In this document: positions 1,520 to 7,970 of the stretch, piece by piece | Numbering within the stretch: the stretch's first letter is position 1 | Layout: each line of letters opens with the position of its first letter | Origin: an uncultured Gammaproteobacteria bacterium | GTDB lineage: Bacteria; Patescibacteriota; Patescibacteriia; SG8-24 | Direction: 5' to 3' | Assembly: GCA_964491475.1 (NCBI GenBank) | Contig: CAZBFO010000003.1 | Span: forward strand, 72,766-136,765 | Length of the DNA stretch: 64,000 bases | Notes under the pieces: generated by a model | What the model was told of the DNA's origin: nothing | Databases searched by the model: none | Seen by the model: only the letters and a program-made list of their open reading frames with translations | Position numbers and translations under genes: made by a program

Positions 1520-2752
1520 ATGAAAACCCCTTTCTTTACCGCAAAAATCGCGACGGCTGCCGTGGCGCTCGCTACGGCCTTCGCTCCCGTCGCCACGAGT
1601 GCCGCCGCGCAGTCGTATACGCAGGACACGTTCGTCACTGCCGGAAGCTCCAACCTGGTCATCAAGGACGGTTCGCAGGCCAGCGACTTCGCGCTGACGG
1701 GCGACGGTTTCACGGCCACCGTGCCAACCGGGGAACAGTTCGAGGTGCGTACCCGCGATTCGCACAACGAGTTGCAGAACGATTCTTTGCTGCCGCCATG
1801 CAAGGTCACTCGGCAACTGGAGAACCGCCTGTTCGTCGTCGGACCGAAGACCGTGACGGTGCATGCCAACGCCAACGCCTGCTCTACGGCAGGTTATGCC
1901 GACGATAAGACCGCCGTATTCGCCTTCTCGAACCCGAAGGCGGGGGAGTCGGTGAAGGCCGGTCAGAACTACCAGCTGTTCTGGTCCACCACGGGCAGCG
2001 CCTTTTCGAGCCTGCGCCTGCGGCTTTCCGTTGACGGCGGCAAGACTTACCCGACCGTGTTGGCCGACGGCGTCATCAACAACGGCTTCTACTCCTGGGA
2101 CGTGCCGATGATGACCTCGACGGACAAGGCCCGCGTCAAGATCGAGGCAATCGATCAGGCCAACGTCGTGGCCTTCTCGGTCAGCTCGGCCTTTGCGATT
2201 TCCGGCACGGCGCCTGCGGCCGCCGACAGCGGCACCGGGGAACCGTCGTCTCCCGCCGCCTATTCCGGTTTCGATGCCGACGCGGTGACTGCGGCCGCCG
2301 GCTCCATCGACAACGATCGCTCGCTGGTGCAGGCGCCGATGCCCGCCTCGGGCGCGGTCGTGTGCACGCCCGGAACGCGCATCAAGGGCGCGTCCAGTTC
2401 GGCGGTGTACTACTGCGGTCGCGACCTCAAGCGCCACGCCTTTCCCAACCGGCGCATTCACGACTCCTGGTTCGACGACTTCAACGGCGTCGTGACGCTG
2501 GAGGATTCGATGCTGGCCAAGATACAGCTCGGATCGAACGTCACCTACAGGCCTGGTACGCGCATGATCAAGTTGCAGACGGATCCCAAGGTGTACGCGG
2601 TGTCGAGCGGGGGAGTGCTGCGCTGGGTGCAGGACGAAGCCACGGCCCAGGCCATCTACGGCTCCGACTGGAACAAGATGATCGACGACGTTTCCGACGC
2701 TTTCTTCTTTAATTATTCGGTTGGGGAACCGCTGCCGCTGTACGTGCGGTAA
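1520..2752 (+). CDS. Exported protein paralog 1: signal peptide, Ig/Fn3-like module, C-terminal conserved ~115-aa domain of unknown function
   Basis: Start at MKTPFFTAKIATAAVALATAFAPVATSAAAQ, a classic signal peptide. The ORF track starts 14 codons earlier at a weaker start. The C-terminal block VYYCGRDLKRHAFPN...VTYRPGTRMIKLQTDPKVYAV...LRWV...DWNKMIDDVSDAFF recurs in 4552..5802 and 6816..7970. Confidence 0.75.
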   Translation: MKTPFFTAKIATAAVALATAFAPVATSAAAQSYTQDTFVTAGSSNLVIKDGSQASDFALTGDGFTATVPTGEQFEVRTRDSHNELQNDSLLPPCKVTRQLENRLFVVGPKTVTVHANANACSTAGYADDKTAVFAFSNPKAGESVKAGQNYQLFWSTTGSAFSSLRLRLSVDGGKTYPTVLADGVINNGFYSWDVPMMTSTDKARVKIEAIDQANVVAFSVSSAFAISGTAPAAADSGTGEPSSPAAYSGFDADAVTAAAGSIDNDRSLVQAPMPASGAVVCTPGTRIKGASSSAVYYCGRDLKRHAFPNRRIHDSWFDDFNGVVTLEDSMLAKIQLGSNVTYRPGTRMIKLQTDPKVYAVSSGGVLRWVQDEATAQAIYGSDWNKMIDDVSDAFFFNYSVGEPLPLYVR

Positions 2753-2772
2753 GGTAAGGACACGCTTGGCTT

Positions 2773-4542
2773 ATGCGATTGCAGACCGCACGAAGGGCGA
2801 CGAGGGGAGTTTCGGCCGCGCTGGCGGTCGCAGGTGCGCTGTTCGGCAGCGTGGCTTTCGTCCTGGCGGCGACGCCCACCACGACCATCGGCACCAGCAT
2901 CACCACCACCGGTACCATTTCCGGTGACGGTTCGCTGCTCACCAACTTGAGCAAATCGCAGGTCGGTCTGGGCAATGTGCCCAACGTCGACGCGACCAAC
3001 CCGTCCAACATTACCGCTGACAGCACGCACCGTTTCGTGACCGACACCGAGAAAACCACGTGGAACGGGAAATTGAGCCTTACCGGCGGCACGCTGACCG
3101 GCGCGCTCGTTCTTAGCGCGGATCCGACCGCGGCTCTCGGCGCCGCCACCAAGCAGTACGTTGACACCGGCCTCTCCGCGAAGTTGAACGCGGCAGGCAA
3201 CGCCGTGACGGCGACCGCGCTGGCGGCAAATCCGACGGATTGCGGTACCGACGCCTATGCTACCGCCATCGCCGCGAATGGCGATCTCACCTGCGCGACG
3301 ATTACGGACGGTTCGCTGTCATCGAACGTGCTCTTGGCAAACAAGCCGTCGGCGGTGCAGTTCAAGGACCTCATCGACTCATCGATCAATTTTGTCGACG
3401 ACGGGCTCACCACCAGGAAGATGGCCTTCCAGCTGTCCGGCATCACCGGCGGGACTACCCGCGTGCTGACCGTGCCTGACGCCAGCGGCACCCTGCTGCT
3501 GAACAATTCCCAGTTGAACGGCGGCAATCTGCTCGCCGGCAGCGTTACCGCCACCAGGCTGCAGGCGACTCCTTTGGATCTGGGCGCTGCAGACGTGACG
3601 GTCGACTTGAGCAACGGCAATACGAGTTTCGCCACGAACCTCAAGCTGGACGGCGTGGCCAGCGCGGCGGCGCTGCAGGCGCAGAAGATGCTCGGCATTG
3701 ACGGCGGCACGCTGCTCCGCTACGACACCTTCCTGACGGGCGGCGACTACCTGACGTTGTCTAACGCCGATTCCAGCGTGCCGGTCACCGTCGGCGCCGA
3801 CGGCAGCGACACCAACGTGTCGATTCGCCTGCTGCCCAAAGGGGCGGGGAGCGTGGTGGTCGGCGGCGACGCGCTTCGCCTTCCGGTGCACTCGGTCGAT
3901 CCGACGGGCGTCACCGGCATGCTGTACTTCAACAACACCGGTTCGACGCTGCGCTGCTACAATGGCACTTCGTGGCTCGACTGCGCTCTCGCGGGCCCTT
4001 ACGTCGTCAAGGGCGGCAATTCATTCGGGTCGGACTTGGCCATCGGCACCAATGACGCCTTTTCGCTGCGCCTGCTGACCGGCGGCAATGTCAGGTTGAG
4101 CATCGACGCCGGCGGCAACGCCTCGTTCAGCGGCGACCTGCAGGTTGCGGGCAAGTCGTTCTTCCAGGGTGATGTCACGATTAGCTCCACGGGTACCACG
4201 GCCGCACACTTGATGACCAAGCAGGCCGTTTCGCCGACCATCGCCGACGACGGCGACAACGCCTCGACGCTTCAGGCCGGGTCCACCGACATCGCCGGCT
4301 TGGTCGTGGCCACCACGGCGCCGCATACCGCGGTGACGGTGACTTTCGCGTCGACTTACGGCAATCCGCCGTTCTGCGTGATTTCCCCGGCCGACGCAAG
4401 CGCCGCAGGCGACGTCGCCAACACCTTCGTGACGACCACGGCGACCGCGATGGTCATTCACACCGCCGGCGCGCGCGGCGAGGCCCACACCTATCACTGC
4501 ATCGGCGGCGGTGGCGTCGCGGCCGTCGTCCAGGGGCAGTAG
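2773..4542 (+). CDS. Large exported fibre-like protein (phage-tail-fibre-like repeats, T/G/A-rich)
   Basis: ATG at 2773 preceded by AAGGTAAGGA. N-terminal hydrophobic anchor/signal. Carries the motif KTTWNGKLSLTGGTLTGALVLSADPTAALGAATKQYVD characteristic of tail-fibre/adhesin collar regions, followed by a long G/T/A/S/N-rich beta region. Confidence 0.7.
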   Translation: MRLQTARRATRGVSAALAVAGALFGSVAFVLAATPTTTIGTSITTTGTISGDGSLLTNLSKSQVGLGNVPNVDATNPSNITADSTHRFVTDTEKTTWNGKLSLTGGTLTGALVLSADPTAALGAATKQYVDTGLSAKLNAAGNAVTATALAANPTDCGTDAYATAIAANGDLTCATITDGSLSSNVLLANKPSAVQFKDLIDSSINFVDDGLTTRKMAFQLSGITGGTTRVLTVPDASGTLLLNNSQLNGGNLLAGSVTATRLQATPLDLGAADVTVDLSNGNTSFATNLKLDGVASAAALQAQKMLGIDGGTLLRYDTFLTGGDYLTLSNADSSVPVTVGADGSDTNVSIRLLPKGAGSVVVGGDALRLPVHSVDPTGVTGMLYFNNTGSTLRCYNGTSWLDCALAGPYVVKGGNSFGSDLAIGTNDAFSLRLLTGGNVRLSIDAGGNASFSGDLQVAGKSFFQGDVTISSTGTTAAHLMTKQAVSPTIADDGDNASTLQAGSTDIAGLVVATTAPHTAVTVTFASTYGNPPFCVISPADASAAGDVANTFVTTTATAMVIHTAGARGEAHTYHCIGGGGVAAVVQGQ

Positions 4543-6757: not shown

Positions 6758-6815
6758 CGCCCGGTCGTTGTGGATAACTTGCGCTGCCCAAGTGGCGGTG
6801 GCATACTCGGTACCT

Positions 6816-7970
6816 ATGAAAAAAGCCATCTTTGCGGCACTTTTGGGACTCGTATTCGCCCTGCCGGCGCAAGCATCCGTAATCGGCATCGGCGATGGGG
6901 ACCTCATCAAGATCGAGAACGACCATAATCCGGCCACGGTCAGCGACACGGTGGTGTACTACCTGGACCGCGACTGGAAGCGTCATCCGTTTCCGAACCT
7001 CCAGGTGTTTTACAGCTGGTACCACGACTTCCTCCCCGTGAAGGAGATTTCGGCGGCGGACATGGCCAGCTTCAAGATGGGAACGCCGGTGACGTACCGT
7101 CCCGGCACCCGCCTCGTGAAGATCGCCTCCGTGCCCAAGGTGTACGCAGTCGAGCCGGGGGGCGTGCTTCGCTGGATCGAATCCGAAGCCGTCGCCAAGA
7201 CGCTCTACGGCAACGACTGGAACAAGCGCGTCGACGACGTGGCCGAATCCTACTTCGCCTCGTACCACGAAGGCGTGCCGATGACCGTGCCCGTATGGCC
7301 CACCGGCACCGTCGTCCGTCGCCTCACCGACGGCGCGACTTTCGTCATCGACGGCCTGCAGAAGCATCCCCTCGCGCTCGATGACGCTTCGGCGCTGCGC
7401 CTGTATTCCAAGAACTTCGTCAGCACCTCCGATGCGCTGACCGACTACGATGAGGTCGGCCCCGTGAAGGCGGGCGACCCCCTCTACCTGGACACCTCCG
7501 AGATGGCCAAGGTGGAGACGGAGCCGCAGCCGGCGATCGACTTTCCCGACCGCAGCGTCAACATGGCTCCCGGCATGTCGCGCGTGCTGACGTCGTTCCG
7601 CATGGTTACCGGTGCGCCGGCGATCTTGCGCAGGCTCGTTGTCAGCGTTTCGGGCCTGCCTGCCGGGGGAACCTCCATGCTCAAGAACTTCCACGTCACC
7701 GACAGCGACGGCAACGACCTGTTCGGCATCCAGCAGCTTCCCGATCCGGTACAGGCCACGGAAATGCTTACCTTCACCGGCGCCTACACCACCAGGCGTG
7801 ATTCCATCAACGTCATTCAGGTCAGGGCCGACGTGCCAATGTCCATTCCCAGCGGCACCAACTACGGCGCTTCGATCGCTCGGAGCGGCATTCAGCTGTT
7901 TGACGCGGGCAACGGCACCACGCCGCTGCGCTTCTGGTTCCCGACCACCGTGCCCTCGGCGGCCAAGTAG
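6816..7970 (+). CDS. Exported protein paralog 3: signal peptide followed immediately by the conserved domain (N-terminal here), then a distinct C-terminal region
   Basis: In-frame ATG at 6816 gives MKKAIFAALLGLVFALPAQASV. The longer ORF from 6603 overlaps the upstream gene and is rejected. VVYYLDRDWKRHPFPN...VTYRPGTRLVKIASVPKVYAV...LRWI...DWNKRVDDVAESYF matches the C-termini of 1520..2752 and 4552..5802. Confidence 0.7.
   Translation: MKKAIFAALLGLVFALPAQASVIGIGDGDLIKIENDHNPATVSDTVVYYLDRDWKRHPFPNLQVFYSWYHDFLPVKEISAADMASFKMGTPVTYRPGTRLVKIASVPKVYAVEPGGVLRWIESEAVAKTLYGNDWNKRVDDVAESYFASYHEGVPMTVPVWPTGTVVRRLTDGATFVIDGLQKHPLALDDASALRLYSKNFVSTSDALTDYDEVGPVKAGDPLYLDTSEMAKVETEPQPAIDFPDRSVNMAPGMSRVLTSFRMVTGAPAILRRLVVSVSGLPAGGTSMLKNFHVTDSDGNDLFGIQQLPDPVQATEMLTFTGAYTTRRDSINVIQVRADVPMSIPSGTNYGASIARSGIQLFDAGNGTTPLRFWFPTTVPSAAK

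Follow-up and report, generated by a model that had tools for sequence, protein, structure and literature searches.

Near one end of a 64,000-nucleotide (nt) stretch of Patescibacteria DNA (the window; GenBank assembly GCA_964491475.1, contig CAZBFO010000003.1, positions 72,766 to 136,765), three genes encode proteins, here called A, B and C, that share a segment of about 115 amino acids (aa). According to the open reading frame (ORF) translations, all three proteins start with a Sec-type signal peptide. B is a paralog of A over the full length (35% identity, BLASTP E = 2e-68) and has the same architecture. The shared segment aligns without gaps in every pairing of the three proteins, with identities of 47-56%; for A and C these are 49% over 114 aa (E = 4e-40) and for B and C 51% over 110 aa (E = 2e-37), and 46 columns are invariant in the three-way alignment. 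An initial annotation of this DNA had proposed three exported paralogs with such a segment, located at the C-terminus in A and B and right behind the signal peptide in C. The ORFs and the formal pairwise alignments bear out both the homology and the placement. The Ig- or Fn3-like module that it saw ahead of the segment corresponds to a Kre9_KNH domain in A (aa 138-227), and B aligns with A across this region. The start codon of C (ATG at 6816) is fixed by the lengths of its orthologs, which range from 384 to 391 aa, and a protein identical to B is present on public contigs. A six-frame hidden Markov model (HMM) scan of the 64 kb yields exactly three copies of the module, those in A, B and C.

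The segment had been described as one single domain, and this view has to be revised, since it consists of two tandem repeats of about 55 aa with a recognisable known fold. The coordinates originally given for it hold overall; the start at 2395 is off by one base, the in-frame position being 2396, and the true start of the module lies about 8-10 residues earlier, at a conserved 'G-x-L-I-K' strand. The two repeats are copies from an internal duplication, as their profiles can be aligned in register across 53-56 columns (hhalign E = 3.2e-4 and 7.1e-5). In an AlphaFold2 model of the A module, based on an alignment of 80 sequences (predicted local distance difference test (pLDDT) 94.9, predicted template modelling score (pTM) 0.87), two beta-beta-beta-helix-beta-helix units are linked by a highly conserved GGNVTYRPG loop, and a helical extension upstream of the repeats is placed confidently. 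The full-length model of C (pLDDT 89.4, pTM 0.83) has three such units followed by a beta-sandwich. The part of C downstream of the segment, previously taken as unrelated to A and B, is therefore not wholly so, because aa 161-219 form a third, divergent repeat. In the model this third unit has the beta-beta-beta-helix-beta order of the other units (E166-E204), and it matches the repeat-1 profile over 55 columns (hhalign probability 91.8%, E = 7.4e-7).

Modules at the C-terminus of a protein, such as those of A and B, have additional features. Homologs of this type repeatedly show the motif 'tGtYs..a..tPsI[DN]x[DN]kgL...C..G.LIK', and of 157 domains with the Cys of the 'VYYC' motif, 154 have a second Cys 7-32 residues upstream, vs. 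49 of 271 domains that do not have the 'VYYC' Cys (Fisher p about 1e-67, uncorrected for phylogeny). This co-occurrence suggests that the pair forms a disulfide bond in C-terminal-type modules, which in turn would imply an extracytoplasmic location. A short 'I[DN]xD[KR][GS]L' motif, considered as a constant junction between module and passenger, was rejected, given that the strict pattern occurs in 8 of 83 C-terminal-type and 13 of 122 N-terminal-type members; a looser conserved extension is seen only in the C-terminal type and in short stand-alone proteins. The features of the locus and its surroundings are collected in Table 1.

Table 1. Positions of the module genes, their parts and neighbouring genes in the window (nt of the window unless aa is stated).
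Feature	Position	Strand	Description	Basis
Large surface protein	79..1341	+	C-terminal 420 aa; N-terminal part lies upstream of the window	BLASTP to 1,180-1,366-aa ORFs
Protein A	1520..2752	+	410 aa; signal peptide, N-terminal region, Kre9_KNH-type Ig-like domain, linker, C-terminal anchor module (putative)	ORF, Pfam, paralogy with B
A, Kre9_KNH Ig-like domain (PF10342)	about 1931..2200	+	aa 138-227	Pfam E 1e-5
A, helical extension	2261..2371	+	'YSGFDADAVTAAAGSIDNDRSL...VVC'; holds the upstream Cys of the conserved Cys pair; helices H6-13 and H16-19	Model, block pLDDT 83-96
A, repeat 1	2372..2557	+	beta-beta-beta-helix-beta-helix, then conserved 'GxNVTYRPG' loop	Model, alignments
A, repeat 2	2558..2734	+		Model; hhalign vs. 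repeat 1
Tail-fibre-like protein	2773..4542	+	589 aa; N-terminal hydrophobic anchor	PHROGs
Protein B	4552..5802	+	416 aa; full-length paralog of A	
B, extension	about 5308..5409	+		Alignment with A
B, repeat 1	about 5410..5622	+		Alignment with A
B, repeat 2	about 5623..5799	+		Alignment with A
TerC/DUF475 protein	5804..6757	+	Integral membrane protein, between B and C	Pfam
Protein C	6816..7970	+	384 aa; signal peptide (aa 1-21), three repeats, linker, C-terminal beta-sandwich	
C, repeats 1 and 2	6897..7295	+	aa 28-160; part common with A and B	BLASTP, alignment, model
C, repeat 3	7296..7472	+	aa 161-219; divergent	Model, hhalign
C, passenger	7533..7967	+	aa 240-384; beta-sandwich resembling carbohydrate-binding modules (CBM) and cohesins	
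S8 subtilase	9179..11290	+	Secreted (predicted), with FG-GAP repeats	Pfam; orthologs in 11 loci
Start of glycan-biosynthesis cluster	11256..18421	+	GtrA, two NAD-dependent sugar epimerase/dehydratases, two GT2, two GT4	Pfam, synteny
rmlB-like	25305..26330	+		Pfam
GNAT	26341..26721	+		Pfam
rmlC	26806..27411	+		Pfam
rmlD	27430..28299	+		Pfam

The earlier statement that the segment belongs to no named family is upheld by profile searches with Pfam, NCBIfam and PDB sequences. When the three proteins are scanned with Pfam-A and NCBIfam, no profile matches the module at E <= 1, those of the SLH, CWB2, LysM, SH3b, PG_binding_1, choline-binding, SPOR, WxL and GW domains included; the one Pfam match in A is the Kre9_KNH domain ahead of the module. 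Searches of PDB sequences, using the entire module as well as the profile of either repeat, return chance matches alone, with neither EccB nor PlyCB retrieved. Among these are antibody heavy chains, matching over about 15-35 residues via the VH framework motif 'TAVYYCARD'/'AVYYCAR', and designed beta-propellers sharing 'DP.VYAV..GG'. Both were rejected, since they extend over short stretches and the fold predicted for the module differs from theirs, in the first case from that of an Ig domain. The sole signal over the module in PHROGs is phrog_9616, a family of 118 profile positions with no assigned function, to which A (aa 298-389) and C (aa 46-139) match weakly at the same positions, about 15-102 (E = 3e-3 and 6e-3). 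A tblastn search of GenBank phages gave no match (best E = 0.4, to Cellulophaga phage holins, which we read as chance), and a scan of IMG/VR returned two module loci, neither of which encodes an endolysin, so that Patescibacteria phage lysins provide no support. On these two putative phage contigs (L082, 584..2089, and L083, 4977..5957), the genes encode signal-peptide proteins that begin with the anchor module and adjoin large structural proteins with a lytic-transglycosylase-like motif; the products may be phage proteins shown on the host envelope. Our literature search found no work linking Patescibacteria with PlyCB and none naming such a domain 'EccB-like' or 'PlyCB-like'. In the literature and databases searched, the sequence family is undescribed; it is large and apparently confined to one phylum. 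Its fold and its probable role are of known kinds.

The fold of the module is recognisable from its predicted structure. The top ten Foldseek matches are all EccB1 or EccB5 (best E = 5.9e-4, probability 0.97), and EccB3 appears at rank 12 (E = 0.51). The unit of about 50-60 aa, a three-stranded sheet, helix, strand and helix, superposes on the repeats of mycobacterial EccB, a component of type VII secretion systems (T7SS; PDB 3x3m, 4kk7, 5cyu, 7nps; PF05108), and on PlyCB-type domains, i.e. the wall-binding domains of PlyCB and of the lysins LysIME-EF1 and Lys170 from enterococcal phages (PDB 4f87, 6ist, 7d55). Of these, PlyCB has been found experimentally to bind the polyrhamnose backbone of the streptococcal wall carbohydrate (bioRxiv 10.1101/2021.03.19.436156), and wall binding has also been demonstrated by experiment for the tetrameric domain of LysIME-EF1 (PMC7098653). 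At the level of sequence, the two repeat profiles align in register with EccB1 in hhalign (E = 1.2e-3, probability 19%; E = 0.066, probability 0.8%), values that are non-significant and too weak for a claim of sequence homology, and no PF05108 match is found at E <= 1. The module proteins also differ from EccB in that they have neither its N-terminal membrane helix nor its central domain, that T7SS genes are absent from their vicinity, and that their repeats are portable and fused to many unrelated passengers. The differences to the lysins are of another kind: their wall-binding domains are single units that become multivalent by forming tetramers or octamers, whereas the multivalency of the module comes from tandem duplication or triplication. 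Moreover, the module proteins are cellular surface proteins with signal peptides that have no detectable sequence similarity to the lysins.

The family extends far beyond this locus. A profile search of 1.84 billion representatives gives 4,709 clusters at 50% identity with E <= 1e-3, of which 1,980 have E <= 1e-30, and a scan of species-representative genomes gives at least 597 matches. Named sources are almost all Patescibacteria (Uhrbacteria, Parcubacteria, Falkowbacteria, Nomurabacteria, Veblenbacteria, Paceibacter, Minisyncoccota). The placement at either terminus seen in A, B and C is also true family-wide, since of the 229 members with a length of 230 aa or more, 122 carry the module directly behind the signal peptide, 83 carry it at the extreme C-terminus and 24 have it at both ends or internally. 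Its partner domains are all of extracellular types and include Ig-like domains (Big_1/5/7), fn3 and Kre9_KNH, peptidases of the S8, trypsin, C25 and M23 families, GH10, Laminin_G_3, F5/8, ice-binding-like domains, propellers and PG_binding_1. Complete genes for the module alone also occur (177-191 aa), and a stand-alone protein of 191 aa with a lipoprotein-type signal is found on 17 contigs. What emerges is one module in many predicted secreted paralogs, at either terminus and with diverse passengers. Across classes, module identity is 45-60%. Within the 57 orthologs of C, median identity is 64.7% for repeats 1-2 vs. 31.5% for the passenger sandwich; the module is thus twice as conserved as the passenger, as would be expected if it recognises a conserved ligand of the producing cell.

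The gene neighbourhood is conserved as well. Two to four module genes lie on a single strand in a conserved order with an S8 protease in 25 of 81 related loci. The order starts with an N-terminal-module protein of about 1,200-1,350 aa, followed by an A-like C-terminal-module protein and an optional B-like paralog with TerC, and continues with a C-like protein, often an N-terminal-module protein of about 980 aa, and finally the S8 subtilase. The ORF at the very start of the window fits the first position: it matches the C-termini of large ORFs in L002, L006, L008, L017, L036 and other related loci, where the module is at about aa 50-270, and these homologs (1,180-1,366 aa) always precede the A-like gene. 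The protein is a candidate major surface or S-layer protein. The TerC/DUF475 gene has the same position in L048 and L003, with orthologs that are 77% identical. In the S8 subtilases of L017, L019, L036 and L078, the FG-GAP region is absent and a C-terminal anchor module is present instead, so that from sequence the C-terminal part has been swapped within one orthologous protease. Downstream of S8, homologs of GtrA, epimerase or GT2 genes follow in the order of the window in all six related loci that extend more than 400 nt beyond it. The co-occurrence with GtrA and glycosyltransferase loci that the initial annotation had suggested checking is thus seen in every related locus that reaches far enough, and the module genes are linked, in the sense of gene order, with wall-polymer biosynthesis genes and the S8 protease. 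Further along the island, the rmlB-like, rmlC and rmlD genes indicate dTDP-rhamnose synthesis, as judged from their Pfam matches, with no rmlA recognised among the ORFs scanned. These genes are a possible source of a rhamnose-containing wall polymer, which recalls the rhamnan specificity of PlyCB, and we mention this as a lead and not as evidence. A different outcome was obtained for the tail-fibre-like gene between A and B, which had been regarded as a component of the locus. It matches phrog_12754 (E = 7e-7) and, weakly, the phage minor tail protein family phrog_3285 (E = 3.6e-4), with no match in Pfam, and it is not conserved, a relative being present in only 1 of the 81 related loci (L030). 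It looks like an insertion between tandem paralogs, because the other related loci do not have it.

Taken together, we lean towards the module being a Patescibacteria-specific, non-covalent cell-wall anchor, a functional analogue of SLH and CWB2, and we consider this reading somewhat better than an even bet. The parallels with the SLH and CWB2 modules of Firmicutes S-layer and cell-wall proteins are extensive. These are likewise tandem-repeat modules located at the N- or C-terminus of many secreted paralogs, with an anchor that is more conserved than the passenger, and their genes likewise cluster with a processing protease (cf. Cwp84) and adjoin wall-polymer biosynthesis genes. The differences are that the module is unrelated to them in sequence (no Pfam match) and in fold, and that its lineage is Patescibacteria; the ORFs scanned, which do not cover the window exhaustively, include no CsaB-type gene. 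In the anchor model, the module proteins would be exported by Sec with removal of the signal peptide, and the Cys pair of the C-terminal type would form a disulfide bond. The repeat module would then attach non-covalently to a conserved component of the producer's own wall, which may be either peptidoglycan or a secondary glycopolymer synthesised by the neighbouring GtrA, glycosyltransferase and rhamnose cluster. The variable passengers would be kept on the surface in this way, here Ig-like stalks and a CBM/cohesin-like beta-sandwich, elsewhere proteases, glycosidases and lectin-like domains, and the neighbouring S8 subtilase may process module-bearing proteins. The original idea of an anchoring or glycan-binding domain has therefore gained indirect support, from the fold match to lysin wall-binding domains and EccB, the extracellular partners and the synteny, and its glycopolymer-binding part is best worded as a prediction.

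Several points weigh against this interpretation. The top structural match is EccB, for which wall binding is a suggestion (PMC4769845), and the sequence-level links to EccB are marginal at the hhalign values given above. Conserved synteny among related metagenome-assembled genomes could in part reflect shared ancestry. The taxonomy of the family is taken from record titles, and many third-party annotation (TPA) records are titled 'uncultured Gammaproteobacteria', with a few titled 'Binatia' or 'Eisenbacteria'; we regard the 'uncultured Gammaproteobacteria' titles as unreliable because such records carry the same gene cluster (e.g. L008).

The prominence of EccB among the structural matches raises the question as to whether the module mediates contacts between proteins rather than with the wall. 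EccB has a known role in structural assembly, and the cluster proteins could form oligomers or jointly build a surface layer or complex in the manner of the octameric PlyCB rings, the Lys170 and LysIME-EF1 tetramers or the periplasmic T7SS assembly formed by EccB. The LysIME-EF1 domain is an obligate tetramer, several module genes are co-linear within one conserved cluster, and the stand-alone module proteins resemble the free wall-binding subunits of multimeric lysins. On the other hand, the repeats are already duplicated or triplicated covalently, and very diverse, unrelated passengers over thousands of clusters are more in line with a shared address tag than with a specific complex. We therefore consider an assembly module unlikely as an explanation in its own right, with oligomerisation being compatible with wall binding in any case.

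Similarly unlikely, and if anything a little more so, is that the module is an adhesin that binds the cell wall of a host bacterium, bringing enzymes or adhesins to it from outside. PlyCB-type domains do bind target walls from outside, Patescibacteria are commonly episymbionts, the passengers include proteases, glycosidases and lectin-like domains, and secreted module proteins are encoded on two putative phage contigs. The pattern of conservation is, however, the opposite of that expected for variable host surfaces: it is the module that is conserved (about 65% in C orthologs, 45-60% across classes) and the passengers that diverge. The lipoprotein-type stand-alone forms fit tethering of the producer's own membrane to its wall, and the conserved link with the cell's own glycan-synthesis cluster fits self-anchoring. 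The strictly terminal placement, behind the signal peptide or at the very C-terminus, might also bring to mind a secretion or sorting signal, as in the C-terminal domains of the type IX secretion system (T9SS), or a chaperone-like folding domain. We regard this as highly improbable, given that known sorting domains keep to one fixed terminus whereas the module uses either and sometimes both, that it has a stable double or triple repeat fold predicted with very high confidence, and that A, B and C already have ordinary Sec signal peptides. Pfam and NCBIfam give no match to T9SS C-terminal domains, PEP-CTERM or LPXTG-type sorting signals, and the module is more often N- than C-terminal.

A large part of bacterial diversity is made up by Patescibacteria, also termed candidate phyla radiation (CPR); most have not been cultivated, and they live attached to other cells, commonly as episymbionts. 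To our knowledge, little has been established about the construction and decoration of their envelope. If thousands of secreted proteins bear a conserved and easily recognised address tag, the surface proteome could be listed for any CPR genome from sequence alone and the proteins likeliest to mediate host contact could be flagged, and the module and the wall polymer of the linked gene cluster would be a concrete, testable pair. The work also ties the EccB repeat of type VII secretion to a broad family of putative envelope-anchoring repeats. More speculatively, the cell-wall anchor, together with the adjacent glycan cluster (GtrA, glycosyltransferases and rhamnose genes) and the S8 subtilase, could be an undescribed, phylum-wide wall-protein display system of Patescibacteria, an independently evolved equivalent of SLH/CsaB or CWB2/PSII/Cwp84 with the N-terminally anchored protein of about 1,300 aa as S-layer or major surface protein. 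We put this forward as a tentative proposal that is rather more doubtful than not; if true, the module would be a sequence tag for the surface proteome, including host-interaction proteins, of uncultivated episymbionts.

Several other observations were made in the window. Between C and the S8 subtilase, an ORF at 8346..9182 (+; 278 aa) is similar to UDP-glucose/GDP-mannose dehydrogenases over part of the N-terminal and the central domain, the C-terminal domain not being found by Pfam; it may be truncated or a pseudogene, and a homolog fragment is present at the same place in L026. Within the glycan island, three ORFs of 851, 552 and 516 aa (18425..20980, -; 21245..22903, +; 22905..24455, +) are without a Pfam match at thresholds of E <= 1e-3 to 1e-4; their products may be membrane proteins of the polymerase, flippase or GT-C-like kind. 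On both strands of 1..12000, the many long ORFs that are antisense or overlap, for example 5603..6949 (-) and 4591..6078 (-), are not genes and are due to the G+C content of 63%. ARAGORN calls an 84-nt tRNA-Ala(cgc) at 31806..31889 (+) that is absent from Rfam at the gathering threshold, lies inside long ORFs on both strands and is probably a false positive, whereas tRNA-Lys at 58740..58815 is confirmed by both ARAGORN and Rfam. Finally, the second half of the window may hold a type IV pilus or competence locus, as suggested by a PilM-type gene at 41824..43062 (-), whose neighbours at 43109..44524 and 45164..46141 (-) have no Pfam matches.

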